This document shows positions 8,680 through 59,416 of a DNA stretch of 64,000 nucleotides, piece by piece (within the stretch, counting starts at the first letter, position 1; the number at the start of each line of letters is the position of its first letter). Origin of the DNA: Sphagnum compactum (Eukaryota); assembly GCA_965153455.1 (NCBI GenBank), contig OZ234493.1, positions 18,838,213 to 18,902,212 of the forward strand, written 5' to 3'. The notes below the pieces were generated by a model. The model was not told the DNA's origin. It did not search any database and saw only the letters and a program-made list of their open reading frames with translations. Both the position numbers and the translations under genes were made by a program.

Positions 8680-9620
8680 AAAAATAACCAAAAATAACCT
8701 AGGTTGGAATAACATAAAATAGCCTGAGATAGCTTAAGGTGGAATAGTTTGAAATATCTTAAATTGGATTAAAATAGAATAACCGAAATTAGTTTTAGAC
8801 AAAATAGCCTAAAATAATTTTAAATGAAATAACTTAAAATAACTGTGAATAATCTAAAATTTTATCGGGTGAAATAGCCTTGAATAACCTAAAATGATTG
8901 AAATCACTTAGATGCAATAACCTATAATAGCCTATGGTCGAATAGTTTAGAATAATCAAAAGTCTTTTAAACTAAATAGTTCAAAATAGTTGAAAAAAAG
9001 TTAAGGTGGGAAAGCATAAATTTAAAAAATAATTTAAAATAAAATAACCTAAGGTGGAGCAACCTAAGGTAGAATAACTTAAAATAGCTAAAAATAATGT
9101 AAATTAAACTATGGTGGAATAACCTAAAATAGTTGAAAATGGATTAAGATATAATAATTTAAAATATTTTAAAATGAAATAATTTAGATAACCTAAGGTG
9201 GAATAGCCTAAAATAGCCAAAATAGTTTAAGGTAAAATAGTGTCAAAGAGACTAGGGTGGAATAACAAAAAACAACCTATAACAGTTTAATGCAAAATAA
9301 CTTAAAATACGTTAGGGCAAAATAACCCAAAATAACCTAAGGTGGAATAGTGTAAAATGCCAAAAATAAACTAAGGTGGAATATCATAAAATAGCCTAAA
9401 ATGGAATAACATAAAATAATTGAAAATAACCTAAGGTAGAATAGCCAAAAATAACTTAAAATGGAATAACATGATAATAACCTAAGATCGAATAGCCTAA
9501 AATAACCTAAAATGGCATAATGTGAAACAGTTGAAAATAACTTAAAATAAAATAGCCTAAACCGGCCTATGGTGGAATAACCTAGATTAATTGAAAATAA
9601 CCTAAAATCATTTATAATAA
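8680..9620. repeat. Degenerate AT-rich tandem array (AAAATAACCTAAGGTGGAATAGCCT-like units), probably internal to a non-autonomous DNA transposon
   Basis: Recurrent motif; similar arrays at 26390-26780 and 49790-50200. Confidence 0.7.
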
Positions 9621-24649: not shown

Positions 24650-27581
24650 CACTACTACAAAAGTGGGGTGCAATTTACTAGTTTAAATCACTATGGGACT
24701 TTAAAAGTGAAATAAGTTCATTCCATTTTACTAATTTCACCTTGGTGAAAGTTATTTCATTATAATATCACTATGTAAACATCATGTTTCATTACTAATT
24801 AACATAATTCACTATTATAATTTACTGTAATAAATAGGTTTATTTTCATGTTTTTTTAATATTCTATCTATGTTATTTTATGATATACCTTATATTATTT
24901 TAAACTACTTTAGTTATTCTAACTTATATTTTATGTTATTATAGGTTATTATAAATTATTGTACCGTAAACTATTATATGTTATTTTACTTTAAAGTATT
25001 TTAATTAGCTTATTATAAGCTTTCTAAGTTATTTAAAATTAAATTATTCAATTAACTTTAAGCTATACCGTAGGTTATTTTATTTAAAATTAATATATGT
25101 TATCTCAAGTTATACTTTAAGTTATTCAAAGTCATTCTACTTTATGTTATTATAAATTATTTTATCTTAAGTATAATAACTTAAAATAATCTAAAATAAA
25201 AAATAATGACCTAAGGTAAAATAACTTAGAATAGAAAATAATAACCAATGAAAAATAATTTAAGATACCTTACAATATAATAACTACCAATAGCCTATGA
25301 TATTATAACATAGAATATCCAACAATAATTTATAATACAATAATCACCAATAGTTATAATATAACATATAATAACCAATAATAACTTATAATACAATAAC
25401 CATTAATAGAATAACCACTAATAATCATTAATAGAATAACCACAGTAGTCATTAATAGAATAACCACAATAGTCATTTATAGAATAACCACCAATAGTCA
25501 TTAATAAAATAGCCACCAATAACCATTAATACAATAACCACAAATAATCACAAATAATCACAAATAACCACCAATAGCCACTAATATAATAGCCACCAAT
25601 AACCATTAATAAAATAACCACAATATCACAAATAACCACCAATATCCACTAATATAATAGCCACCAATAGCCATTAATAAAATAACCACAAATAATCACA
25701 AATAACCACCAATAGCCATTAATAAAATAACCGTCAATAGCCATTAATAAAATAACCACCAATAGCCATTAATAAAATAACCACCAATAGCCATTAATAA
25801 AATAACCACCAATAGCCATTAATAAAATAACCACCAATAGCCATTAATAAAATAACCACCAATAGCCGTTAATAAAATAACCACCAATAGCCATTAATAA
25901 AATAACCACCAATAACCATTAATAAAATAACCACAAATAATCACAAATAACCACGAATAACCACTAATATAATATCCACTAATAGCCACTAATATAATAG
26001 CCATTAATAAACACCAATATCCACCAATAGAATATCCATCAATAGCCATTAATAGAATAGGCACCAATAACCACTAATAAAATAGCCATTAATAGGCACC
26101 AATATAATAACCTCCAATAGCCACTAATATAATAGCACCAATAGCCATTAATATAATAACACCAATAGCCACTAATATAATAACACTAATAGCCATTAAT
26201 AGAATAACCACCAATAGCCACCAATAGAATAACTAACAATGGCCATTAATAGAAGAACAATCAATAATTATTAATAGAATAACCATTAATTGACATTAAT
26301 AGCCACCAATAGAATAGGTTCCAATAGCCCTAATAAAAAAATAACTAATAACCATATATTGGAATTACTTAAGATTGCCAAAAAATAATATAGGGTGAAA
26401 TAATTTATAATAAACAAAATTAACTTAAGGTGAAATAGCCTAAATAATTTAGAATTGCCAATAATAACATAAAGTGAAATAACTTTTAATAGCCAAAAGT
26501 AACTTATAATAGCTACAAGTAGCCTAAACTAAAATAATTTACAATAGCCAAAAATAACATAAATTAGCCAAAAAAACTTACAATAGCTGAAAATACCCTA
26601 AGGTGAAGTAAGCTAAAATAGCCAAAAGTAACTTAAAATAACCAAAAGTAGTCTAGGGTGAAATAGCCAAAAATGACCAAAAGTAATTGAAAATAACCAT
26701 AAATAGTTGTAAACAATGTAGGGTGAAATAATTAAATTAATGAAAAATGGTCATATAATACTTGAAAATAGCTTAGCATAGGTAGTATTATTATATTAAC
26801 AAAGTTTTATCCATTTATTAAAAAAAAAATTTCCAAAACAATGGTCATTGAAATGTTATTGAATAATGATATTCAACTTTTTTTTGTTCAAATGATTTTA
26901 AACTTTCAAAAGGAAATAAATGTAATTATGTACATTATTGATTTTTAAAAAAAAGTAAACTCAAATCATTTCATTACAACAAAATCTCAATAAGATATGA
27001 ATTTTCAAAATTTATGTTTTTGTAATGTTTAAAATGAAATATTCGATAAATAGAATGTAACATAACATATTATCACAACAAGTGGGGTGGTTTGATGGTA
27101 AGGGTGTTTGGCTCTAATCCAAAGGTCAAGGGATCAAACTTCATGAGTGGTTTTGTGTGTGGTCAATAATGGTATGTTGACTGAATATTTTCTCCTATTT
27201 AATTCCTAAAATAGGTGCCTAGGTTGATTACGTGGCCTACCTACCTAGGCTAGGTTTTTAACCTAGCTAGGTAGTGACACATGTCAATAAATCATACGTT
27301 GAAAAAATCATGAAATTATCAATAATATTATATATTATATAATAAAATTTTAATTGATTTCCATGTTGGTTAGTTAATTAACTAGTAAGTGAATGGTTTG
27401 GTAAATTTATATTTCACTTGAGAGTAACCTTGTTTCACCTGGTACTAATGATATAATTCATTGTCCATAGCAACTGGTCCCTGTTCAGTAAGGGGTTAAA
27501 CAATTTCCCCAGGTAAAAATGTCCAAATTCACTCAAAATCTAGTGTACCCAAAGTGAACTAGGACGCATTTTGTAGTAGTG
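24650..27581 (+). mobile_element. Non-autonomous CACTA element with an internal fold-back AT-rich array and minisatellite
   Basis: 13-bp perfect TIR CACTACTACAAAA / TTTTGTAGTAGTG. Both arms are homologous to the elements at 49337-50430 and 55884-59975. The 3-bp flanks (TAA/CAT) do not match. Confidence 0.8.
25380..26330. repeat. 25-bp minisatellite AATAAAATAACCACCAATAGCCATT (8 near-perfect copies at 25721-25920, degenerate flanks)
   Basis: Directly visible tandem units. Confidence 0.9.
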
Positions 27582-33889: not shown

Positions 33890-35950
33890 TGGTTGAATAA
33901 AAAGGGTTTTCTACTAGTGATATAGTTGGCAATTGATGAAAGTAATTATCTCAAATTGAAACACCTTAACAAATTAAGTTCGTAGAATGCATTAAATTGG
34001 CGAATAAACATAAGTAATTCTTATAAGCCCATACAAATTAAGCTTTCACAACTAAAGCTTTTTGAGTGCATTTAGTTGGCCAACGTACATGTAAGTAATT
34101 CTTGCAAGTTGAAGCATTTACACAAATCAAGATTTTCAAGTGCACTCAATGATGAATAGATGAAACTAGTTATTTCAAATTGAAACACCTTGACAAATGA
34201 AACACTTTGAGTGCATTCAATTCACCCATAGATGAATGTATTTCTTTCACGATGCTTTCAAGTTGTAGAAGTCTTACAAATAAAAATTTAGAATGCATTC
34301 AATTGGCCAATAGATGAGGGTAGTTCTTCCAAGTTGCAACACTTTGACAAATAAAACTTTTGGAGCGCATTCAATTAGCCAATAAATGAAGATAGTTACA
34401 ACACCTTGACAAATTAAGCTCTTCAAGTGCAGTCAATTGGCCAATAGATGAAGGTAGTTCTTTCAACTTGGAACACCCTACCAAATAAAGCTTTTGGAGT
34501 GCATACAATTGGCCAATAGATGAAAGTAGTTCTTCCAAGTTGTAACACCCTACCAAATAAAATTGTTGGAGCGCATGCAATTGGCCAATAGATGAAGGTA
34601 GTTCTTTCAAATTGGAACACTATGACAAATAAAGCCCTTGGAGTGCATTCAATTGGCCAATAGATGAAGGTAGTTCTTTCAAGTTACAACACCATGACAA
34701 ATCAAATTTTCGGAGTGCATTCAATAGGCCAATAGATGAAGGTAGTTCTTTCAACTCAGAACACCTTTGCAAATCAAACTTTTGGAGTGCATTCAATTGG
34801 CCAACAGATGAAGGTAATTCTTTCAACTCGTAACACCCTTTCAAAACAAGCTCTTGGAGTGCATTCAATTGGCCAATAAATGAAGGTACTTCTTTCAACT
34901 CCGAATACCCCCACAAATCAAGCTTTTGGAGTGCATTCAATTGGCCAATAAATGAAGGTACTTCTTTCAACTCCGAACACCCCCACAAATCAAGCTTTTA
35001 GAGTGCACTCAATTGGCCAATAGATGAAGGTAGTTCTTTCAATTCACAACACCTATGCAAAACAAGCTCTTGGAGTGCATTCAATTGGCCAATAGATGAA
35101 GGTAGTTCTTTCAAGTTGCAACACCCCCACAAATCAAGCTTTTGGAATGCATTCAATTGGCCAATAAATGAAGGTAGTTTTTTCAATTCGAAACACCTAT
35201 GCAAAACAAGCTTTTGGAGTGCATTCAATTAGCCAATAGATGAAGGTAGTTCTTTCATGTTGTAACACCCCCACAAATCAAGCTTTTGGAGTGCATATAA
35301 TTGGCCAATAGATGAAGGTAGTTCTTTCAATTCACAACACCTACGCAAAACAAGCTCTTGGAGTGCATTCAATTGGCCAATAGATGAAGGTAGTTCTTTC
35401 AAGTTGCAACACCCTTGCAAATTAAACTCTTGGAGTGCATTCAATTGGCCAATAGATGAAGGTAGTTCCTCCAAGTTGCAACACCTACATAAATTAAGAT
35501 TGTGGAGTGCATTCAATTGGCCAATAGATGAAGGTAGTTCCTCCAAGTTGCAACACCCGCATAAATCAAGATTTTGGAGTGTATTCAATTGGCCAATAGA
35601 TGAAGGTAGTTCTTTCAAGTTGGAACACTCTCGCAAATTAAACTCTTGGAGTGCATTCAATTGGCCAATAGATGAAGGTAGTTCTTTCAAGTTGGAACAC
35701 TCTCGCAAATTAAACTCTTGGAGTGCATTCAATTGGCTAATAGATGAAGGTAGTTCTTTCAACTTGGAACACCCCGACAAATCAAGCTTTTGGAGTGCAT
35801 TCAATTGGCCAATAGATGAAGGTAGTTATTTCAAGTTGGAACACTCTCGCAAATTAAACTCTGGGAGTGCATTCAATTGGCCAATAGATGAAGGTAGTTC
35901 TTTCAACTTGGAACATCCTCGCAAATTAAACTTTCCGAATGCATTTAATT
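33890..35950 (-). pseudogene. Distal, out-of-frame continuation of the NLR LRR array (~28 further 72-bp units)
   Basis: Same 24-aa unit. Deletion/frameshift near 35955-35965; in-frame stops at about 35826, 35229, 34998 and 34620; progressive decay below ~34400. Confidence 0.9.
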
Positions 35951-37125
35951 GGCTTATATCTGAGCAAACTAAAGTCTGGGAGTGCATTTAATTGGTCAAT
36001 AGATGAAGGTAGTTCTTTCAAGTTGCACCCGCCCAAACTAAACTTTTGGAGTGCATTCAATTGGCCAATAGATGAAGGTAGTTCTTTCAACTTGAAACAC
36101 CCCGACAAATCAAGCTCTTGGAGTGCATTCAATTGGCCAATAGATGAAGGTAGTTCTTTCAACTTGGAACACCCCGACAAATCAAGCTCTTGGAGTGCAT
36201 TCAATTGGCCAATAGATGAAGGTAGTTCTTTCAAGTTGCAACACCCTTGCAAATTAAACTCTTGGAGTGCATTCAATTGGCCAATAGATGAAGGTAGTTC
36301 CTCCAAGTTGTAACACCTACATAAATTAAGATTGTGGAGTGCATTCAATTGGCCAATAGATGAAGGTAGTTCTTTCAAGTTGAAACACCCTCGCAAATCA
36401 AACTCTTGGAGTGCATTCAATTGGCCAATAGATGAAGGTAGTTCTTTCATGTTGTAACACCCCCACAAATCAAGGTTTTGGAGTGCATTCAATTGGCCAA
36501 TAGATGAAGGTAGTTCTTTCAAGTTACAACACCATGTCAAATAAAGCCCTTGGAGTGCATACAATTGGCCAATAGATGAAGGTAGTTCTTTCAAGTTGGA
36601 ACACTCTTGCAAATTAAACTCTTGGAGTGCATTCAATTGGCCAATAGATGAAGGTAGTTCTTTCAACTTGGAACACTGTCGCAAATTAAACTCTTGGAGT
36701 GCATTCAATTGGCCAATAGATGAAGGTAATTCTTTCAACTCGGAACACCCCGACAAATCAAGCTCTTGGAGTGCATTCAATTGGCCAATAGATGAAGGTA
36801 GTTCTTTCAAGTTGCAACACCCTTGCAAATTAAACTCTTGGAGTGCATTCAATTGGCCAATAGATGAAGGTAGTTCTTCCAAGTTGCAACACTTGCATAA
36901 ATCAAGATTTTGGAGTGCATTCAATTGGCCAATAGATGAAGGTAGTTCTTTCAAGTTGGAACACCCTCGCAAATTAAACTCTTGGAGTGCATTTAATTGG
37001 TCAATAGATGAAGGTAGTTTTTTTAAGTTGGAACACCCTTGCAAATCAAGCTCTTGGAGTGCATTCAATTGGCCAATAGATAAAGATATTTCTTCTAAAC
37101 TTTGGCATTGTGCCAAATCAAGTAC
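33890..37125. repeat. 72-bp tandem array encoding LRR units (LQxxxLxxCxxLKELPSSIGQLNA), about 44 units
   Basis: The core GGAGTGCATTCAATTGGCCAATAGATGAAGGTAGTTCTTTCAA recurs every 72 nt; count estimated from array length. Confidence 0.95.
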
Positions 37126-40100
37126 TTGTAATTGTAAATAAGAAAATAAATTATTTGGCAACTTTTGAATCATGCATTTTTTTAGGCACAACCACTTAAC
37201 ATTATTCAAATTTCGCCCTTGGATGCAATTTTCCACAATAGTTGGTGAAGCTTCTGTTAGGTCAACCAACCTAAGGTTGCGAAATCCCTTTGAGTCGATT
37301 TGGGACAATAGAGGCAAATTGAGACATTTTTTCAATGAAATGCCCTCTAAATTTTTCACCACCTATCACATGAAATGAAAGCAAAAAGGATTATCAATGT
37401 AAAAGAACATTTCTCGTAATGCCAAATTTTATTAGAAAAATATGTATTTATAAAATCAAAATTCAAAACTAAAACATTTGGTTTTGGACAAAAAAAATCA
37501 TAGGAAATTGAAATAAAATTATAGGATTGAAGTTGTATAATGACAACCTTATCCTTTTGTAAAAAATAATTTGATTGATGTGATTTCCATATAAATCGAT
37601 TCATAATTGGTGGTTCCATTGCAATATTCTGACCCATGTCTCGTAATTGTTCATGTATGTACAAGATTCCACCTTCTTTCCATTGGATTAAAGATCTGTC
37701 TTGTAAATTTTGTAAGTCAAACTTTGGGTATTCATAATTTCCCCTCCACGCTCGACAAATTGTACTTATTTTCAAACCACCAAAAAAACAAGCAATATCC
37801 AAAAACATGTCTTGAAGTTGCTTATCCAAATGGTCATAAGAAATCCTTAATACACTCCAAAGTTTTTCATTATCATTGCCCCCAGTGAGACTTTGCCCAC
37901 TTTTCAATTTGTTTAATGCACCTTCCCACATTTTTAATTTTTTAGTATTGCACAAAAAAGAACCCAATACTTTAAGACTTAAAGGGAGCCCCCCACAAGC
38001 TTTTATAATCTTCATACATATATCGTTGAAATCTTCTATTGGAACACGATTTCCATTACCCGATGCATGTAACATAAATAGTTCCCTTGCTTGTTTTTCC
38101 TCCAAAGGTTTCATGTCCACTTTTCCATCCTCACTTACATGAGATTCCAAACTTTGCCAATTTCGACAATTCACAAGTACTCTGCTTTTAGAAGTTGGAT
38201 TTTTTGTAGCCTTATCAATGAAAATTGGCAAAGATGTAAGGTTTTCCTCCTTACCAACATTATCCACCACCACCAACACTTTCTTTAATATCATACATTG
38301 CCTAATTTTGTCAAGGTCTTCTTTTTTCACATTTTCATCTTTGCATAACCTTTTGCCACACAAATCATGTAGGAGTTGTTTTATGACATCATTGATATTG
38401 TCCTTTGAATTCACATCCTCTAAAAAACTAGACTTATCATATTGGTTGTGGAACATATGATAGAATTTGTTGCTCAAAGTGGTCTTCCCAATCCCACCCA
38501 TTCCAACCAAACCAACAATAGATTCCTTTTGTAACAAGATGTTTATGTCTTTTGCTTTGTCAATCAATGCCACCTCATGACATGGCAAAGGTGGAAACAA
38601 TATATTTTTCTGTCAAAATTCACAAAATATAAGTCATTTATATGTTATACTTCTTATTTGATAACCAATATATATGACATTGCATATGTGATACACATCA
38701 AGTGTGCTATGACCTAATGTGTATCAAATTACATGAACATATATGAAATCAAAAGATTTAGATTTCGTGTTTTTACCTCCATACATATTTTCAAACATTT
38801 TAACAATAAATCGTAACTTGGATGATCTTTGTTTGGTGGCTTGCAAATTGTCAAGTGATTAGCATCTTCAATTTTGTAATGGTTTTTGTTTGACAATCGA
38901 ATAGCTGAGGCATATTTCACTAAAATTCCCTGCATGTGCAAAAAATTAAGTTAATGGAATTCATTGATTATTTTGTTCACTTATGTTTTAACTTATAAGT
39001 AACATAGTAATTCCAAGCAGTGGTGGGAACCAAGTTTAATAACTATTAATGTTTGAATCATAATCAATTTGTGTGTAAAATTAATTTCCTTCAACCCTTT
39101 GGCAAGCAAATTATATAAATACATCACAAAGTTATTGGTTTTTAATCTCATTAATCTTACATGTTTTAATGATGTTATGATTTTCCTTATAAATATTTAT
39201 ATGGAATTGATTTGATGAAGGGACCATTTAAAACCTATTTCTTGATGTTTGAAATCAATTGAATTTCCTTTCCATCAATAGTAATTCATGAAACAAATTT
39301 CATAAAACACATGACCCATTCACCACATTAATATATTCAGAAGTATTGAGTCCTTGATCCCAAACAAATTTTGACAATACAAAAAATGTTCAACTAATGA
39401 ACCAAGTTGGATAACTTTCAATATGGTGAAATGAGAATCTTACCCAATTCTCGTCAAGTGGTAATCCTTCACCAAATGCATAAATGTTGACGTCTTCGTG
39501 AATGGCATTTTTAAAATCCTCTGAAAGGTCTTCCATTTGTGGGTTGAAAGGTTCTAAATTTTTTGAAAAACCAAGTTGGGTTGCATACTTGTTCAACAAG
39601 TTGATTTGTTGATATTGCCAAATGAAATATTTTGATAAATATTGGGTACCACCAGAATGTGGCACACCATAAAATACTACACCTTTGACATTGTTCAAAA
39701 ATGTTTTACAACATTTATGTATTTCATCATCCAAACCATTTTTTGGCCGTTGATATACATGTTTATAAGCTTCAACCACCAAGCTTTTGAGTACAAGACC
39801 TCCAAAACTATAAGCAATTAATGCCACGGGTCCATCCCACAAGGATTGATAACTACAAAATATTCAACAATGCACCAAAATTTTGTTATCAACATTGTAT
39901 TAGCATATACAAATTTATCCTATTATACTTGGAACAATTTTCCAATTCACACATGACCTAAGCCATAAGTTCATAATCAATTTGCTCATCATTTGTCATT
40001 TTTCATTTATTGATTCCATTAATGTACTTAAAAAATGTGACAACCATGTTTTGGTAAAACTATTATTATGTACAAGTATGTAGGTGTTTACATTTTTGTG

Positions 40101-40861
40101 TTAATGTACAACTCATCTTCTATGTGTTACTTTGGAAATATCGTTGAAATAAATAATAATAATTAAAAAAAATATATACCCTTTTTTTGAAATTATTTTT
40201 TTGCAATGAAATGGATGCAAATTTCTACACGTATTAATTTAATTCAATTGCATTACCAAAAATAAAGCTTCAAAAGATGCGAACTAAAAATTGTCATCAA
40301 AACCAAACTAATTGTACTATGAACTTATAGGCTTTGCTTTTATCTTCAAACAAGAACATTTTTGTTTTAGCTCCATTTTATGTTCTCCTACATGAATTTA
40401 ACAATTCAAGTAAATTGAAACTTGTTGGTGTGTATCACAATACTAGCACACATGAACAATTAACTTATGCAAAACATTTAAATTTAAAGCTGTAAACAAT
40501 CATCTTTAATGTACACAAGGAGTAGTAATTAATGTGTCCATAAATAGAGGAGATTGTCACACCTTGAATTTGCAATCAAACTTTGAATGAGGTTTTTACC
40601 AATTTCAGTCACATCATTGTGAACACTTCCCACAATGTTAGAATCATAGGACAATGATAAAATTCGAACATTGTTGTTCAAGTCTTCGGGTAACCACTTT
40701 TCTGGCCAACATATGCACTCTTCTATATCGTTGGTGGGGCGTGTTGTCCATGTTTCCTTCCATTCATCATTCGTGCCAAAAGCAATCCCATGAAAAAAAA
40801 CGATGCTCAAATTTGGATTATTGGAATTGCAAGTGGGATTTAAATCATGCACTAGATAATT
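35926..40861 (-). CDS. Alpha/beta-hydrolase-NB-ARC-LRR (HNL-type) NLR; exons 40563-40861, 39444-39852, 38777-38929, 37548-38609, 35926-37362; first exon(s) unresolved; LRR truncated by frameshift
   Basis: Five GT-AG-bounded exons join in frame. Hydrolase motifs IVFFHG, WPEKWLP, RILSLSYD, AYSFGGL, FYGVPHSG, FGE, DANHLTICKP. NB-ARC motifs GMGGIGKTT, VLVVVDNV, CGGLPLSL, FLDIACFF, IHEQLRDMG. 16 complete homogeneous LRR units. Confidence 0.9.
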
Positions 40862-42146
40862 CTGCAAAGAAAATGAAAATGAGTCAACACAATGCTTCAT
40901 ATGTTTCTTGGAAATTATTTGACTATACATGAAATTAAAAAATGCAATATACAAATTATTGTAGTTAGATAAAGGCAATAATTAGTTGAAGAGATTAAGT
41001 TTAACAAGATGACAATAATAGATGAATCGGAGAATACCAAATCTATCTTGTATGCCTAACAAATGAAGATCATTCACGTGTCATAGACTTCAAAGTTTCA
41101 AAACATAGTTCAATGAGTAAATGTTGTTACATAGTAGGTGGAACGCATGCCAAACAATAAAGGTTAATGATAAGAATTGGATTCTTTCGAGTTTGGGTTG
41201 AATAATTGAGCCATCTAGTTCGGTTCACTTGTATTTCATGACATGTCCCCAACAATTGGGCATCTGATGGCTAAGGAATTGGGACACAAACCCAATTAGA
41301 ATGTCAAAGAGCATTTTCATAATTTGTTTTAGGTTGTTGGATTAAGAGTACAAATTGAACTTAACTCATAATCTATAATGAAAGTTCCAATCCTTACAAG
41401 TTCAATATATTCCTAGTTAATGCCAAATTTTGACAAATTTCCCTTTCACCAATTCTACTTGTGATAGCAAATGAGTTGCCGACCTAATGTAAGAGGTTAT
41501 AATGATCCCTCCATTTGGTATTGTTTTAAACATCATTTCATATTGTTTTTATCTAAACAACAAGACTGGAAAGTAAGCAAAGTAAAAATGTATGACAAGG
41601 AAAGCGTGTAAATGATTGAGGACATTCAGGTGCCCTAGTGGCTAATGGGTTGGTTGCAAAGCTATTGGTTGGGAGTTCAAATCTGAACTAGACCTCCTTC
41701 TCCTGGTGCTTTGTGAGGACAATAAGCTATCATGGTTGTAAGGGTCAAGGAAAATTGTCAACACCTGAACAAAATCGAAAAAAACAAAGAAAAATCAAAC
41801 TTCAACATGTAACTTGGGAAAGCCCAAGAAAAAACTGTGCAAAGAAAGCTCATCATAAGGTCAAGAAGAAGCACCACATTGCTGTGCCATCCAGAGCTCA
41901 ATGGAGCATTTTCAGTGGGGACCAAAGGTGTCTCAATCGTAGCAGGTATGTGCACAACATCTCTCTTTCTATTTGGTGTCCCTTGTGAAAGATCAACTCC
42001 TTTTCTCTTGAGGCCATATGAATTTTCCATATTTCACACGACTGAAATTCCTATTGCTCACTGCTCTCATAAATATTTTTCTCTTGACCTTTTGGTCTCA
42101 TAAAATCTGCTACAAATCCTTTGCCATCCCAATAGCATACACAGGG

Positions 42147-44341
42147 TATGATGGCTGTCCCTCACATCACAGATTCCCGCAAGCTAAGCTGATCTTTCCA
42201 CTAGATCTCCCCAAAAAAATCAACCCCTTCCGTCTTCACGATCTCCCTGGAGTTCTCACACTTCTTCTCTCACTCCTTTTCGACCTTTCTTGCAGATGTT
42301 TCTTCTTCTTCATTTTCTCCTCGCCCAGAAACTTCTAGAAGGGTTTTGCCGTGACTCTTCAGACTGTAGCATACGCGCTTTACCGATTTCTTCTTGGCCA
42401 CTGAACAATTCATTACTTTCTTTTCTGGAACACCTGTCTCTATTTTCTACTCATAATTGAGGATGGAACATGCAATGTCAGCTTTAGACTCGTCAAACGC
42501 GCTTTACTTTTTCCCTCTGGCCTCTTCCATTATTATCATCATGACTTTTGTTCACATCCACACACTGACCTTTCTTTTACCGAAAAACTAAAGCGGAAAA
42601 AAAGCTAAGTCATAAATCTAAAAAGTGCTAAAATCGAATGCTTTTTGAGATTCTGAATAGCCAAAATTCATCCAAATTGAAAGAAAAACCGTCAGATTTC
42701 CTTACATGGTTTTCAAGTAGGTAGCCAAAAGTAAGAGAAATATGTTTCAAATTTTCTAATGCCATATTTAGCTCATAGCTCAATCCGACTAATCTTCCTA
42801 CCGATGATAGGCACTTGGGCTATATCTCAAAACTGACCCAAAAAATTATTCATCCACACGTTTCCTACTGTTGGCTGATTTCACCCAGTGCATTATTGAA
42901 GCGCTCTGCCAGAGCTCATGTTGCAGGCAATGCATGATTAATTGAGCCTTGGGCGGACCGGCCAAGATGAATTGACCCCCAAATTGGGATCACTGTAAAA
43001 ACCCCCCGAAACCCATTTAATTGTCCGTATTAGGCCCCAAAATTTATAGATTTGGACTTTGGGACCCTGACTTAGTCTAGGGAAATGATATCTAGAAACA
43101 TTTAGACTATTTACGAGCAATTTAAATGAGGTTTGTGGCTTTTACCATGATCCCAATGTGGGGGTCAATTTGCCTTGGTTGGATGAACCTGGCCTACACT
43201 AGAACAACTGTGACAATCCCAAAGTTTTTGGGGGCAGCTTCAAAACATTATGATGGGTGTCCGTCACATCACAGATTCCCGCAAGCTGATCTTTACACTA
43301 GATCTCTCCAAAAAACATCAACCCCTTTCCTCTTCACGATCTCCCTGAAATTCTCACACTCTTCTCACTCCTTTTCGTTCAGATGTTTCTTCTTCCTCAT
43401 TTTCTTCTCGCCCAGAAACTTCTAGAAGGGTTTTTGCAGAAACTTCTAGAAGGGTTTTTGCGTGACTCTTCAGACTGTAGCATACGCGTTTTACCGATTT
43501 CTTGGTCACTGAACAATTCATTACTTTCTTTTGTGGAACACATGTCTCTATTCTCCACTCATAATTGAGGATGGAATATGCAACGTCACCTTGAGACTTG
43601 TTCAACACGCTTTACTTTTTCCCTCTGGCCTTCTCCATTATTATCATAATGACTTTTGTTCACATCCACACACCGAACTTTCTTATACCAAAAAACTATA
43701 GCCAAAAAAAGCTAAATTATAAATTTTAAAAGTGCTAAAATCAAATGCTTTTAGAGATTCTCAATATACAAAATTCAACCAAATTCAAAGAAAAATCGTC
43801 AGATTTCCAGACATGGTTTTCAAGTAGGTAGCCAAAAAAAGAGAAAGATGTTTAATTTTTTCTAATGGCATATTTAGCTCATATCCAAATCTGACTAAGT
43901 CTTCCTACCTATGATAGCGGGCTATATCTCAAAACTGACCCAAAAAGTTATGCATCCACACGTTTCCTGCTGTTGGCTGATTTCACCCAGTGCATTATTG
44001 AGGCGCTCTGCCAGAGCTCATGTTGCAGGCAATGCATGATTAGTTGGGCCTTGGGCGGACCGGCCAGGATGAATTGACCTCCACATTGGGATCACTTAAA
44101 AAACCCCCAAAACCCATTTAAATGGCCGTGTTAGGCCCCAAAATTTATAGATTTGAACTTTGGGACCCTGATTTAGTCCACGGAAATGATATCTAGAAAT
44201 ATTTAGACTATTTACGAGCAATTTAAGTGAGCTTTGTGGCTTTTACCATGATCCCAATGTGGCCTTGGTTGCATGAACCTGGCCTACACTAGAACCACCG
44301 CAATAATCCCAAAGTTTTTGGGGGCAGCTTCAAAACATTAT
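42147..44341. repeat. Tandem duplication of a ~1.1 kb segment (42147-43250 and 43249-44341) upstream of the NLR
   Basis: Both units start TATGATGGxTGTCCxTCACATCACAGATTCCCGCAAGCT, end GGGGGCAGCTTCAAAACATTAT and are colinear throughout. Confidence 0.95.
42945..43200. mobile_element. MITE-like element inside the duplicated unit (second copy ~44045-44290)
   Basis: Inverted arms CCAAGATGAATTGACCCCCAAATTGGGATCACTGTAAAA / TTTTACCATGATCCCAATGTGGGGGTCAATTTGCCTTGG. Confidence 0.7.
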
Positions 44342-45767: not shown

Positions 45768-45892
45768 GACCCGCTTTACTCTAGGAGTCCGGGCTGAAAA
45801 AACTTGGGGCCAACTTTGAGCATTTTTGGCGTTTTGTCTGGCCCCAAGTTACTAATAAATGCTACAACATTGGCCAAAGGGTTGCAAATTGA

Positions 45893-47416
45893 CATCGTGA
45901 CAATAATCAAAGGGGCAAACATCCTGGTTGATAACAAGGGATATATCAAGCTTGCAGACTTTGGTGCATCCAAAAAGGTGGTTCAACTTGCAACCATTTC
46001 TGAAGCCAAGTACATGAAAGGCACCCCTTACTGGATGGCTCCGGAGGTCATTCGTCAGACGGTTCATAACTGGCAAGCTGATATGTGGAGTGTTGGCTGC
46101 ACTGTGATTGAAATGGCGACTGGTAAACCTCCCTGGAGCCAGCAGTTCCAAGAGGTAGCTGCATTGTTCCACATTGCAACTACAAATCACACCCTCTCAT
46201 CCCTAAGCATCTTTCTCATCAAGGCAAGGATTTTCTCCTCAAGTGTCTCCAGAGGGAGCCCACACTAAGCCTTAGTGCAACTGAGCTTCTGAAGCATCCC
46301 TTTGTTTTCACCTATGAGAATCAAGGAGGATTAGATGATTCTGAGGACATACAACAACAAGCCGCAGCTGATGGTCATTTGCAGCAGCAGCAGGCAAATA
46401 GGGGAAACAAAGAATTGCGATCTGTGAAAGGTATATGGAGACAGGTTGGCCAGGACAGCTGGAAGCCAACTGGGGTGCTTGGGATGGGTTCATCCTTTTC
46501 TTTCAGAGGCTCCCCATACTCGGTGAAGAATTCTGATAACATCAACTGGGCTTCCAGAAGGGTTGGGAATTCAGACATGGACGACCTTAATTGTTTTGTG
46601 AGGTTGGACTCTGTAAGGTTTGATTCTATCCAACATGATACTTGGAATGAAAGCTAGAACCCGGTGTCAGAGCCCTCATTTGTGGATGGCAACCACTGGA
46701 GGCTTCATCTGACAGCGAATGGGGGGTTCTCTGTAGGACGACCTGTTGCTAATGGAGATCTTGCAAGCATGGGGACCCCAGAATGTGAGCATAGTCTCGG
46801 GGAGAGGGGATGGTCTCTGCAGCAGCAGGAGGAAGATGAAGTGACAGCATCCAAGATTCGTGCCTTCTTGGATGAGAAGGCTTTGGAGCTCAAAAGGCTC
46901 CGGACACCACTCTATGAGGAACTTTATGAGACCTCAATGAGGAGCTCAGAAATTCCTGCTTCAACTGGGCCTCCCGAGAGCTTTATTGCACCTTCGAACC
47001 CTGCTATTGCGAAACAACAAACGCACAGCCCCAGCAAATCACCGGGCGGTCTCAGTGGAAGGTCAATCGGAATGAGAAGCAGCCAAGAGAGTGAGACGAG
47101 CGCGAGTTCTGGGAGCTCCAGTGGAACTGGAGCACCTTCTCCCAGTGTCAATTGTTCCCCTCTTTTGGAAATTCCGTCAGCAAGGTTGAATGAATGGAAC
47201 GGTCTTATTAATGACGCACAGCAACCGCTACCAAGCCCTCGTCTGAGTTCTAGTGAGCGTCAAAGGCTCTGGAGAGAGGAGCTTGAGCAGGAGCTTAGAA
47301 TGAAGCGAGAGGAGAAACGGAAACAATTGGCTAAACAGGGCTCTCCAATGTCTCCACCCAACTCAAAGGGGCTTCAACGACCTGCCAGTCGTCTGGCTAC
47401 TGCTTCCCAAATTTAG
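45893..47416 (+). pseudogene. NPK1: NPK1/ANP-type MAPKKK pseudogene, intronless and 5'-truncated
   Basis: HRD[+4 nt][44 protein letters not shown]. 1-nt deletion at ~46185 before SHPLIP...LLKHPFV; TAG at 46655-46657. C-terminal KIRAFLDEKALELKRLRTPLYEE and SERQRLWREELEQEL are typical of NPK1/ANP. The kinase N-lobe is absent. Confidence 0.9.
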
Positions 47417-49336: not shown

Positions 49337-50430
49337 CACTACACTAATATGTGTCCAAGTTCACTATGTGTTTCACTAGATTTTGAATAAAATTGAATAA
49401 ATTTATCATGGTAAAAGTGACCAACCCATCAGTAAATGAAGATCAATTGCTATGTGTAAGTGAATTCATTAATCATTAATCAAATTCATTTATAGTTAAT
49501 CGAATTCACCAATAATGAATCAAATTTACTAATAGTTGAATCATTAATAATAAATTCACTAATAGTCAATTAGGAACCTAAATTATACACCTAAGAACTT
49601 TTATTAAACTACCTAAACTAAACTAAGAACCTAGCTCATAAACACTTAACCCACCAACCTAAGGTACAAGTGTGAAGGTTTGAGCCTTCCATCTTTAAAA
49701 CTTAAACCCATTAAACATTAACCCATTAAACCACTATTTAAATGAATGATATTCTTTTGTCATCACATATTATTATGTACATTTTTTTTAACCCTAGGTT
49801 ATTTTAGGTTTTTGTACCATAAGTTGTTTTTGTTGATTATAAATTATTCTCTTGTAGGTTATTATTGACTATTCTAAGCTATTTATCATAGGCTATTGTT
49901 GGTTATTCTATCATAGGTTATTTTAACAATTATACCATAGGTTATTATTGATTATTATATCATAGGCTCCTTTTGGTTATTCTATTATAAGCTAGTTTTT
50001 GTTATTTTAAGTTATTGTATTGTAAGTTATTGTAGGTTATTTTATCGTAGGCTATTATTAGTTATTATGAATGACCTTGAATAACTTAAGGTATAATAAT
50101 TTATAATAACCTATACTAGCTTATAATAAATTAAGGTATAACTTAGAATAACCTAGGTTAGCTTAAAATAACACAACGTATAACCTAAAGTAACTTACGA
50201 TATTGAAAACAACAACATAAAAATAAATATATTTAATTATTATTTTGAATTATTTCAATTAGTAGTGAATTATGTCAAATAATCATGAAACATGAGGTTA
50301 ACAAAATGACCTTATAATGAAATAACTTTAAGCAAGGTGAAATCGTTAAGGTGGGGTGAATTTATTTCACTTTTGAAGTCCCATAATGATTTAGGCTAAT
50401 GAATTGCACCCCACTTTTATACATTTAGGA
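49337..50430 (-). mobile_element. Shorter, more decayed copy of the CACTA family, reverse orientation
   Basis: 49337-49400 is the reverse complement of the family right arm; 50330-50420 is the reverse complement of the left arm (AAAAGTGGGGTGCAATT...TATGGGACTT); same internal AT fold-back. Confidence 0.7.
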
Positions 50431-55330: not shown

Positions 55331-56149
55331 ACATTGATCATAATCCCATTTAACTTGTATTTTCCAAATGATAAATTCAAAATAATAAATCTAGGAGAGA
55401 TTACTCATTCTTCTAGATATGTTACGTTTGAATAGATTTGACGACTTGATTTTTTCTTATTTTTTTATGGTATTTTAAAATGCACTTTTTACTTTTTAAA
55501 TATAAAAAGGGGTATTGCATCCTTGGATGGACCCACTAAGAACTACCTCAAGGAATGGTAAAACTATCAAAATAATTTTATTTTTATTTTTTTCATAGCC
55601 ATTTTTTTTTCTCATGTCTATCCATTGCATACCAAAATACAAAATCTAAAGTGTTCATTGGAATTTTTAAAATGTGAGAAATATGGCAAATTCAATTTCC
55701 TAATTACAATTGTCTTTTTTAGAATCATTCTCCTAAAATTTGGAAATTCATAATTAAATTATACCTACTCAACTAACTACATAATACAAAATTCAAATAA
55801 AATGCCTTCTAAAGTACCTATGAAAATTATTTTTAAATAAAGTATCAAAACATGTTTGAAACTTGCGTTTTTAAAAAAACATTCACTACTATAAAAGTGT
55901 GGTGTAGTTCATTAGGCTATTTCATTGTGCAAACATAAAAGTGAATTAAGTTCACTATAATTTCATTGCTCTTACTTTCATTGGTGAAAATGGTTCACTA
56001 TATTGTGTACATGTTTATTAAGGATGAAGTTTGTTTACTAGATTTTTTTTTAACATTATTAAAATAATTATTAAAAAAATCTTTAGTTAATTGAGTTTAA
56101 GACATTACTAAATTAATTAGTTAAATGTGACATATTTTATCTATATATT

Positions 56150-59100
56150 CCCATTTCAAGCATTGATAATGCGTTTGAGAATCTGAAGCTTCAAGCAGAG
56201 CTGCGAAAACAAGGAAGAAAGCATGGTGCTGGTGATGGCCCTCCATTCTACTACTGCAACAGCAGCAGCAATGATGGAGAAACAGAAGAAAGAAGAAGAA
56301 GAAGCTGGATGGGATTCTTCCTTCATGATGGGTTGTTGCAGCCGATTGTGGGTGTGCACTACTACCTTGTGTTCTGCGAAAGGAGAGATCACCACTTAGG
56401 CTTTCATGTCTGGCTTGATCGACCACAAGCTCTAGATCATCATCGTTGTCGAAGAAGCAGCATCTCCTCCTCCTCCTCCCCTCAATTCTTGTCTTACAAG
56501 AGACTAGCATTGAGTAATTCTTCGTACATGGAGTTTTTGCAGGAGGAGGAGGAGGAGGAGAAGAAGCACAAGCTGCTACTGCTGGAGGAGGAGGAGGAGG
56601 AGCAGCAAGGTGGGGGGAGACTAGGGTTCAATCTGGAGAGATTGCGATGGCTGTGGTCCAAGGAACCTGCATCGGCATTTGCAGGAGCGAGCAGCAGTAG
56701 CAGGTTGAGAACAACGACACTGGGCTTGCAACACACGATGAGGAAGAAGCAGCAGCGATGCAACTTCCAAGTACTGCAAAAGAGAGAGAATCTGAAGCTG
56801 GTCTTGAGAACAACAGTAGCTAGCTGGTGGTGGTGGTGGTCGTCAGCGGGAGGAATGTCACCGATTGCTCGACAGCAAAGCTTCTTGTTCAAAAGATGGA
56901 AGAAGAATTGGACGTTCGGCGGCGGCAGCCGCAGGAGCAGCAGTACAAGAAGAACAACTTCTTCCAACAGCAGCAGCAACATATTGGCGCTTCTGAGGGA
57001 ACAAAGGGATGATGACGATGACGTGCAGCTTCCGCAATTCAACAGGATACAGATCACCTACTCCTCGCACAAAGGGGAGAGGTTCTATGGATTCGGCGAG
57101 TAGTTCTCGCATTTCGACATGAAGGGGAAACGCGTCCCCATCCTGGTGCAGGAACAAGGTCTTGGTCGTGGTGACCAACCCATCACAGCTGCTGCAAACC
57201 TCGTCGCCCACAGGTGCTGCTGCTTCACCATCTCATCATTGCTCTCCTCCCATCATCCCTCCTGCATCTTCTTCTTCTTCTTCTGTTCCTCCTTGTGGAG
57301 GATTTGGGTTTTTGCAGGCTAAGTGTCTGCTGGGCTACATCGATTCTGCAAAAACCTACATCAATCATAGCACAATGCATCATCCCAGATCATCTATTCC
57401 CTTGTGGATTTGGGTTCTTGCAAGCTAAGTGTTTGCTGGGCTCCATTGAATCTGTGAAAACCTACATTGATCATAGCACAACCCATCATCCCAGATCATC
57501 TGTTCCTTGTGAATTTGGGTTCTTGCAGGCTAAGTGTCAATCAAGCAGAATTTTTCCTTCCTTGCAAGGTAAGGATCTGCTACTCGATCGAGGAGCAGAA
57601 TGTCTTGTCAGTGAAGGAGGTTTGCACACTTCAAGGGGAAGGACGTAACTGAGGCTTGTTTGCTGTTGTTGTTGGTATTTTTCCAATGTGATTTGCTGAT
57701 TGCAGAGCAGGAGGAGCTTGGCATACAACGTATGCTCCTTCTCCACATTACATGACTTCCGATCTGCACTCTGTGTTTCTGGAGAATTTCGAGTACTCAG
57801 TGTTTGACTTGACTCATCATGATCGTGTCCACTTGCAAGTGTGTGTCCCTCTTTCAATCCCTTGAACACTTGTGAAAAAATCTGATGAAGAGTTGAGAGA
57901 AAGAGCTCAAGGAAATTCCAAATCCTGTAGAATGTTTTTGTAGCAGTCAGTCCTTTATAATATCCAACAATTGCAACAAGCAAAGTGCAAGAGGGAAGAT
58001 GAAAGAAGAAGAAGAAGCAAAACATGAGAAGCTCAAAGTGAAAGAGGAAGAAGAGAATTCTGCAATTGTCCAAAAGCTCTTCTTGGGGTATTGTTGTTTG
58101 CACTTGGGATCTTGTGGGGGTTGTGGTCAGAGTGTTGCATGGATAAGAGTTTAAGGGAGTGGTACAGGTTCATGCAGGTAGTGTGCAGGGGCGTATATTG
58201 CAAGGACATACACCAGCAGAACTGATCAAACATTACACTGCAGCAACGGGACGCATGTGAGAACTTCCGAGCTGGATTACAAAGGGTGCAATTGTGGGGA
58301 TGCAAGGTGGATTACAAGTTGTGCATCAAGTCTGGGAGAAGCTTCAGGACTTGGATGTGCCACTCTCTGCTTTCTGGCTCTAAGTGAGTGTAGAAGAAGC
58401 TCCCAGTTGACTTATGGTTTTGTTCCTCCTTGAACTGTGTACACACCATTTCTAAACTGCAGAAAGATTCAGCAATGCAAAAAAGCCTAATAATATACTG
58501 GGGATCTGTTTTCCAGGACTGGGTAGGCCAGAGAAAGACCAACATTGGGTGGCAACTCTGGTGGAATTGGGAAGTGGACTCACAAGCACATCCTGACTGG
58601 GAAAAGCTGGTGCAAGATCTGCGAGCACATGGCATTCGCACTATGACTTATTGCAATCCTTTTCTCGCCTCTGTGAGTGATACATAGACTTTATCCTGCT
58701 TGCTTATGATGCTAGTTATATCCCATCCTGTAGAAGAATTTGCTTGATTGATGACAGTCCTCATGAATTTCTTTTCCCTGCTATATCCTCTTGCAATGCC
58801 TTCCCAGACAGATGAGAGCCCAACAGAAGACGGAATATGTTTGATGATGCCAAGAATGAGGGGATGGTTGTGGGAGATAACCTGGTGCACCTTACATGAT
58901 TCCAAATACAAGCTCGATGCTGCCATGGTGGACCTCACGAACCCAGCTGCACGCAAGTGGTTCAAAAGTATCTTACACGACATGGTTAAGACTGGCGTCC
59001 ACGGATGGATGGCTGATTTTGGGGAGTCCTTGCCTTTTGATTCCTGCCTCTACTCTGGTACATACCCTAAGCCCTTCTTCACAAAATGTTGACCCAAGCC

Positions 59101-59416
59101 AGAGTACATCTTCATTGCTAACTACATATAAGAATGGATCAGTTGCAGTCTCTAGTTTTTATATCTGCCAAGACTTCCCCTTGCATGTCATGTCCCTAAC
59201 TGATGCTCATATACAAAATTTCACGGCTGTGGGTTCTTCTTTCTTGAGTTGCATTAAATTGTATGTTCTTGCAAAGGGCTAACAACAAACGGGGTAACAC
59301 TGCATGCAGGTGAAGACCCTGCCACAGCTCATAACAAGTACCCAGAGCTGTGGGCAGAGTTAAATAGGGAGTTCTTGGAGGAGTGGGAGAAAGAGCACAA
59401 AGTGCAGAGGCGCTAA
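56150..59416 (+). pseudogene. GH31 alpha-glucosidase, sulfoquinovosidase (YihQ)-like gene fragment; exons ~56150-57213, 57706-57838, 58168-58383, 58517-58672, 58808-59057, 59310-~59416
   Basis: Peptides ERFYGFGE*FS, VQEQGLGRGDQP, TTYAPSPHYMTS, GAIVGMQGG, AFWL*DWVGQR...WWNW, YCNPFL, VDLTNP, GWMADFGE (nucleophile) and AHNKYPELWA. GT-AG introns. Stops at 57101, 58258 and 58381; three apparent 1-nt deletions in exon 5; truncated at both ends. Confidence 0.9.
57291..57537. repeat. ~107-bp tandem repeat (2.3 copies) in intron 1 of the GH31 fragment
   Basis: CCTTGTG..ATTTGGGTTxTTGCAxGCTAAGTGT recurs three times. Confidence 0.9.

Follow-up and report, generated by a model that had tools for sequence, protein, structure and literature searches.

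The NLR gene on the minus strand of the window (the 64,000-nt stretch of Sphagnum compactum DNA that was analysed, to which all positions refer) carries a homogenised LRR array, and we consider it probable that this array has a floating stop and a passively decaying tail rather than a maintained store of cassettes. Silent tails are the norm of the paralog family and are not peculiar to the focal gene; the single locus is ordinary for its family, and the interest lies in the family pattern.

Gene structure and the interrupted LRR array

The gene extends from an ATG at 42030 to a stop at 35926–35928 and consists of six exons, separated by GT..AG introns, that splice to 1171 codons with zero internal stops, in agreement with the first-pass annotation, which had found neither stop nor frameshift in the upstream exons. 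The encoded order is a hydrolase domain, an NB-ARC domain with a winged helix, and LRRs (Table 1). A Pfam scan of exons 2 and 3 taken singly gave zero hits; the hydrolase domain is recognised through exon 3, as the segment of the homolog P0005 that it matches overlaps the DUF676 hit of that protein. The DANHL motif in exon 4 presumably supplies the putative catalytic His, and the P-loop GMGGIGKTT in exon 5 is unbroken. Nearly all of the best 75 homologs are Sphagnum proteins.

Table 1 Features of the focal NLR gene and its silent tail, in window positions.
Feature	Position	Strand	Remarks
Exon 1	41875..42030	-	ATG at 42030; short N-terminal extension; homolog N-termini P0003–P0024 compared
Exon 2	40563..40861	-	alpha/beta-hydrolase domain begins; homologs have DUF676 at ~aa 118–250
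Exon 3	39444..39852	-	hydrolase core, AYSFGG motif; 81% identity to P0005 aa 152–285
Exon 4	38777..38929	-	hydrolase domain end, DANHL motif
Exon 5	37548..38609	-	NB-ARC and winged helix; PF00931 E=1e-30, PF23282 E=1.8e-11
Exon 6, coding part	35926..37362	-	linker, lead-in repeat, 15 open LRR units, frameshifted end, stop 35926–35928
Open LRR units 1–15	35998..37074	-	72 bp each; unit 15 is 69 bp (in-frame 3-bp loss)
Unit 16, 43 bp	35955..35997	-	frameshift by net 29-bp deletion with clustered substitutions; single copy in genome
Proximal silent tail, units 17–26	35235..35954	-	units 18–24 mostly near-copies of own coding units; stop 35826–35828
Older silent tail, units 27–37	34443..35234	-	largely colinear with L031 silent tail; stops 35229–35231, 34998–35000, 34620–34622
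Decayed terminal units	33928..34442	-	lengths 62, 72, 82, 71, 74, 79, 72 bp; inherited lesions

By its architecture and intron phases, the gene fits the HNL/Hyd-NLR class. Its central NB-ARC domain and C-terminal LRRs follow the hydrolase domain in the order described for bryophyte HNL genes, and introns 3, 4 and 5, which are phase 0 as calculated from the exon lengths, lie within the hydrolase domain and on either side of the NBS, as is described for those genes (Xue et al. 2012, PMC3352924; Chia et al. 2024, PMC11218826). In the portions of these reports that were available, the HNL class is given as present in liverworts only (Xue et al. 2012, PMC3352924), and Hyd-NLR genes are said to include Sphagnum members, with some Sphagnum hydrolase-NLRs in a separate clade (Chia et al. 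2024, PMC11218826). The focal gene differs from HNL as described there in having two extra 5′ introns, and those portions describe neither a homogenised 72-bp array nor untranslated tails, both of which the focal gene has (PMC3352924, PMC11218826).

The ORF of the last exon (37362–35926) contains an array that parses into 14 full 72-bp units, one 69-bp unit and one 43-bp unit, and its stop sits 29 bp into the unit that follows the 43-bp one. With TRF scores of 2046 and 1569, the array is not a chance pattern. A deletion ending the ORF at 35926 had been proposed from a first look at the letters, and the parsing bears this out as a net 29-bp loss in the 43-bp unit at 35997–35955; the lesion unit was called unit 17 behind ~16 LRRs in that proposal and is unit 16 by our anchor, a difference that comes from whether the divergent lead-in repeat is included in the count. 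The ~28 further units, with at least four stops and decay toward the distal end, were likewise recovered: 28 silent units lie 3′ of the lesion, to ~33930, of which 21 are full-length and seven decayed, and besides the four stops listed in Table 1 further stops occur in the decayed end. Between 35940 and 36030, about a dozen substitutions and a 3-bp loss surround the 29-bp deletion, far over the 1% branch background.

An assembly error within the tandem repeat could in principle have created the frameshift, and we regard this as very improbable. The clustering of those substitutions is of the kind such an error might leave, and the junction is unique, its 30-mer occurring in the genome (G000) at up to three mismatches only at its own locus. 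It is also uncovered in assembled contigs of all four public runs (three DNA, one RNA), which over 35815–36045 gave zero cover at 35935–35958; at most 0.41 of the words were present in any one run, so the zero cover says nothing about the frameshift. Many RNA contigs match generic LRR units and are not locus-specific. Against an error, several of the odd bases are common to units 15, 17, 18 and 2, as expected from duplication, unit 18 carries a stop regardless, frameshift ends are frequent in the paralogs, and 7 of the 34 array-bearing Sphagnum database proteins terminate in off-frame repeat sequence. Import of the junction from a paralog was ruled out by its single genome match (itself) and by the 56 paralogs, which contain no 43-bp unit. 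Rescue by splicing out the frameshift was ruled out by inspection, because a stop comes in unit 18.

Silent tails and open units across the paralog family

The genome contains at least 113 NB-ARC matches, and the best 56 of the 112 other than the focal one were taken to give 57 loci including the focal gene. The screen covered exons 2–6 with automated lesion calls, and two arrays run past the stretch taken. Exons 2–6 were intact up to the array in 24 of the 57 loci, the focal gene among them, while 33 had upstream lesions. Behind the first array lesion, which was a frameshift in nine of the upstream-intact loci, a stop in ten and absent in five, a silent tail followed in 19/24, with at least 15 tail units in 10/24. 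The five loci lacking a tail do so within the stretch taken, and one of these arrays runs off its end.

The position of the first lesion differs between the two groups, with a median at unit 23 in the 24 upstream-intact loci and at unit 8 in the 33 broken ones (p=3e-4), and at least 15 open units were retained in 21/24 versus 12/33 (p=1.2e-4). In upstream-intact loci, units 1–15 had 5 lesions per 351 units, compared with 37 per 488 further 3′. The broken loci also have a gradient (31/416 versus 59/433), so it is partly not due to selection, and the 15-unit cut-off was picked post hoc, after inspection of the data. These results show that the first ~15 units are under selective protection family-wide, which gives a natural estimate of ~15 repeats for the minimum sensor length. 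L055 has at least 75 open LRR units in an array that continues past the stretch taken, and L067 has one frameshift followed by at least 53 intact units. Even between L053 and L057, which are 0.4% apart, the arrays have diverged toward their 3′ ends in how many units they contain and in what order.

Within the unit, 17 of 24 codons are more than 88% constant in 668 coding units, with entropy peaks at codons 8, 10, 12, 13 and 16, and the variation is concentrated at codons 8, 10, 12, 13, 15 and 16, which are predicted to form the binding face. The silent units depart from this constraint: in the tails of intact genes the framework N/S rises to 2.55, from 1.25 in coding units, for a neutral expectation of 2.2. 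In the 12 intact tailed genes, where one or two lesions precede a silent unit, 21 of 119 such units lie within one base of a coding unit of the same gene; where at least three precede it, 1 of 60 does. Of the 57 loci, 23 share a decayed unit of 82/83 bp at the far end, so the decay gradient noted in the focal gene is largely inherited.

From these patterns we infer a mechanism in which an array of 72-bp units would be remodelled by unequal crossing-over and gene conversion, by analogy with the processes described, in the portions available, for fungal repeats (PMC2873952, PMC1805685). The array has no fixed C-terminal cap, so that the ORF terminates at the first stop or frameshift within it, and selection keeps roughly the first 15 units open. 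Units stranded behind the first lesion lose constraint, diverge and leave the exchange, with the oldest lying most 3′, as the family comparison shows. A frameshift in the LRR region of these genes need not mean a pseudogene, which affects counts of peat-moss NLRs.

The sister copy L031 and the state of the focal gene

L031 is a segmental duplicate of the focal locus that spans ~22 kb with an intron divergence of 2.5%. The L031 coding array has 42 units, almost nothing of which is colinear with the focal coding array, whereas the tails match nearly unit for unit (units 27–44 of the focal gene). Other paralog pairs 2–5% apart mostly have little colinearity as well, and the units they do share in order lie chiefly toward the 3′ end or among the first few; L040/L058 departs from this, with many colinear units in the middle of the array. 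Among 2042 units, just two have both a stop at codon 2 and KLVLH, namely focal unit 27 (stop 35229–35231) and the unit that ends the L031 ORF. This shared rarity suggests that unit 27 and everything 3′ of it had probably fallen silent before the duplication, in the ancestor of both copies.

The proximal tail has a different relation to the coding units. Focal units 4, 12 and 24 are identical, and the pairs 11/23, 13/19 and 7/21 each differ at one base; most simply, units 18–24 would have been coding until the 29-bp deletion. On this view the deletion would be fairly recent: it shortened the ORF to 15 units, and ~10 units that used to be coding were left untranslated, ahead of a tail whose silence dates back to the common ancestor with L031. 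The module types QELVLHR/LRR, QKLYLVG and QKFDLQR, listed in the first-pass annotation as absent from the coding part, are indeed missing there in the focal gene, but the paralogs encode most such types: ELVLHR is coding twice in L031, and KLYLVG lies in the open frame of three intact paralogs (L053, L055 and L057). Exact KFDLQR was found in no open frame among the family units, and KFDLQ is present twice in L031. Focal silent units 29 and 35 each differ at a single base from a coding unit of L031 (26 and 37, respectively). We read the tail-only modules as ancestral types.

Since the duplication, the introns have acquired ten indels and the exons one, which is in frame. Along the focal branch, 20 changes are N and 17 are S (p=0.008), which gives a dN/dS of 0.42, a value that arises because S is in excess (17 versus 6.3 expected) and N is not depleted (20 against an intron-rate expectation of 19.2); the L031 branch, with 18 N and 9 S, has no significant signal (p=0.26). 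The reading frame was thus protected after the duplication, but none of these signals dates from the time since the frameshift. The position of all four stops in the tail would have P=0.011 if all arose after the frameshift; once the old tail is set aside, a single stop remains, at P=0.18. With one informative stop, and with most of the tail probably untranslated already when the duplication took place, the lesion asymmetry, which appears largely inherited, is weak evidence for the focal copy. The earlier suggestion that the truncated gene stayed under selection accordingly has support at the level of the family (5/351 versus 37/488) and little from the asymmetry of this gene.

The focal copy may instead be a young pseudogene, killed by the recent frameshift, with too little time since then for lesions to gather in the upstream exons, a reading to which we give somewhat less than an even chance. 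Over the whole branch since the duplication 1.1–1.8 upstream stops would be expected, the tail offers its one informative stop, N is not depleted relative to introns, and more than half of the paralog loci (33/57) have upstream lesions. The gene also retains exactly 15 open units, the low edge for intact genes. Set against this, the intact paralogs protect units 1–15 and commonly end by frameshift without a cap, and in the focal gene all splice sites and the P-loop are intact. As the gene sits on a threshold chosen post hoc, its predicted status as a still functional copy is about even.

Exon 1 is 12.8% divergent from L031, compared with 1–3% in other parts of the gene, which suggests conversion with another paralog; the N-terminal extension is internally duplicated in L032, L033 and P0024. 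Directly upstream of the focal ATG, 42147–43251 and 43249–44341 form a tandem duplication of ~1.1 kb with 87% identity, and this element has two copies at the L031 locus and apparently one at L032, L033 and L038. An intronless, frameshifted protein-kinase fragment at 45798–47416 on the plus strand faces away from the NLR and looks like a retrocopy of an NPK1/ANP-type MAPKKK; it was co-duplicated, is also broken upstream of L031, L033 and L038, and has nine genome matches at E<1e-40, two of them in long open frames. A GC-richer segment at 56117–59282 contains several ORFs of 100–330 aa and a 106-bp tandem repeat, with no convincing Pfam hit. AT-rich minisatellites with a 25-bp period occupy 25270–26360, 8700–9600 and 49460–50300, and the one at 25.3–26.3 kb borders the duplicated block.

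Exchange between silent and coding units

The first-pass annotation had proposed the tail as a donor of modules to the coding part. A selected, maintained reservoir with this role, comparable to pseudogene or cassette donors, is improbable; what survives of the proposal is occasional exchange, which is likely in L031. There, coding units 34–35 match silent units 52–53 of the same gene. A particular mark, missing from the focal counterparts, is confined to four L031 units (three silent, one coding) out of 2042, and a longer mark is found only in units 35 and 53. These matches make exchange across the stop likely after the L031 tail was silenced, and transfer from tail to coding part would be the slightly more parsimonious direction. 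In the focal gene, YNM occurs in unit 9 and silent unit 26 only, and unit 25 is one base from unit 29, across the older stop. In eight orthologous tail units compared between the focal gene and L031, a crude count gave 11 N and 11 S, with N below the neutral prediction, which fits conversion from coding-type units or some constraint.

Family-wide, in contrast, the tails evolve at close to the neutral N/S and grow more isolated the older they are; they contain stops and, with a ratio of 2.55 near 2.2, are not cassettes kept intact by selection but a family-wide by-product. Five of the 24 intact loci have no tail in the stretch taken, the supposedly tail-only types are coding elsewhere (ELVLHR in L031; KLYLVG in L053, L055 and L057), and an informal look noticed no dedicated recombination signals. 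Exact tracts shared between the coding part and the old tail of the focal gene reach 64 bp at most, compared with up to 70 bp between the two genes; being no longer than between-gene tracts, they show no donation in the focal gene. Unit 8 as a mosaic of tail units 34, 35 and 37 was dropped, its parts being also found in coding units elsewhere.

Under the passively decaying tail that we prefer, young silent units could recombine with coding ones as a by-product, as the one sister-gene case suggests, and the likely exchange in L031 leaves room for passive donation. A stronger version, which we hold to be possible but doubtful, is a polarised array with a floating stop in which new LRR units spread in the 5′ coding part, displaced units accumulate untranslated in cis and recombination brings silent modules back into frame so frequently that new specificities would genuinely arise from them. 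A plant NLR family would then have a germline, in-cis counterpart of a cassette library. Should silent units feed back in this way, the fungal repeat-shuffling model would extend to a plant NLR family with in-cis donors. Recent paralog pairs allow a direct test of exchange between silent and coding repeats.

In lamprey VLR genes and in antigenic variation from silent cassettes, untranslated modules adjoin an expressed gene, and VLR genes are assembled somatically. The focal gene is similar in that untranslated LRR-coding modules adjoin it; those systems rely on an incomplete germline gene, somatic assembly or maintained cassettes, whereas the tail here has stops and decays. Among mainly open-access literature, titles and abstract openings held no description of floating stops or silent LRR tails in Sphagnum.

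The het-d/het-e/NWD NLRs of Podospora have, in the portions of the reports available, near-identical repeats with few hypervariable codons and variable repeat number, and these genes, called HIC-repeat for the high internal conservation of their repeats, are described as undergoing unequal crossing-over and conversion, with many pseudogenes and exchange with non-coding copies (PMC1805685, PMC2873952, PMC12222747, PMC13449251). The focal family likewise has near-identical repeats with few hypervariable codons, and its arrays change in repeat number and order more rapidly than the remainder of the gene. As far as those portions go, the fungal sensors are WD40 (also ANK or TPR) repeats on NACHT or NB-ARC proteins, whereas the focal gene encodes a plant NB-ARC-LRR protein. 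The divergent C-terminal 'cryptic' repeats of the fungal genes are translated there, while the divergent 3′ repeats of the focal family are untranslated, the end of its ORF floats and its old tails decay. Rice Xa1, Xa1-2 and Xa14 are BED-type NLRs in which a few longer repeats occupy the centre of the LRR region and alleles differ by 279 bp, according to the available part of their description (PMC7748011). Near-perfect tandem repeats in the LRR region of a plant NLR are common to this type and the focal gene, with allelic differences in repeat number in rice; the silent tail of the focal gene has no counterpart in that part of the Xa1 description (PMC7748011). The focal gene resembles both the HIC-repeat NLRs and the rice Xa1-type NLRs and belongs to neither.
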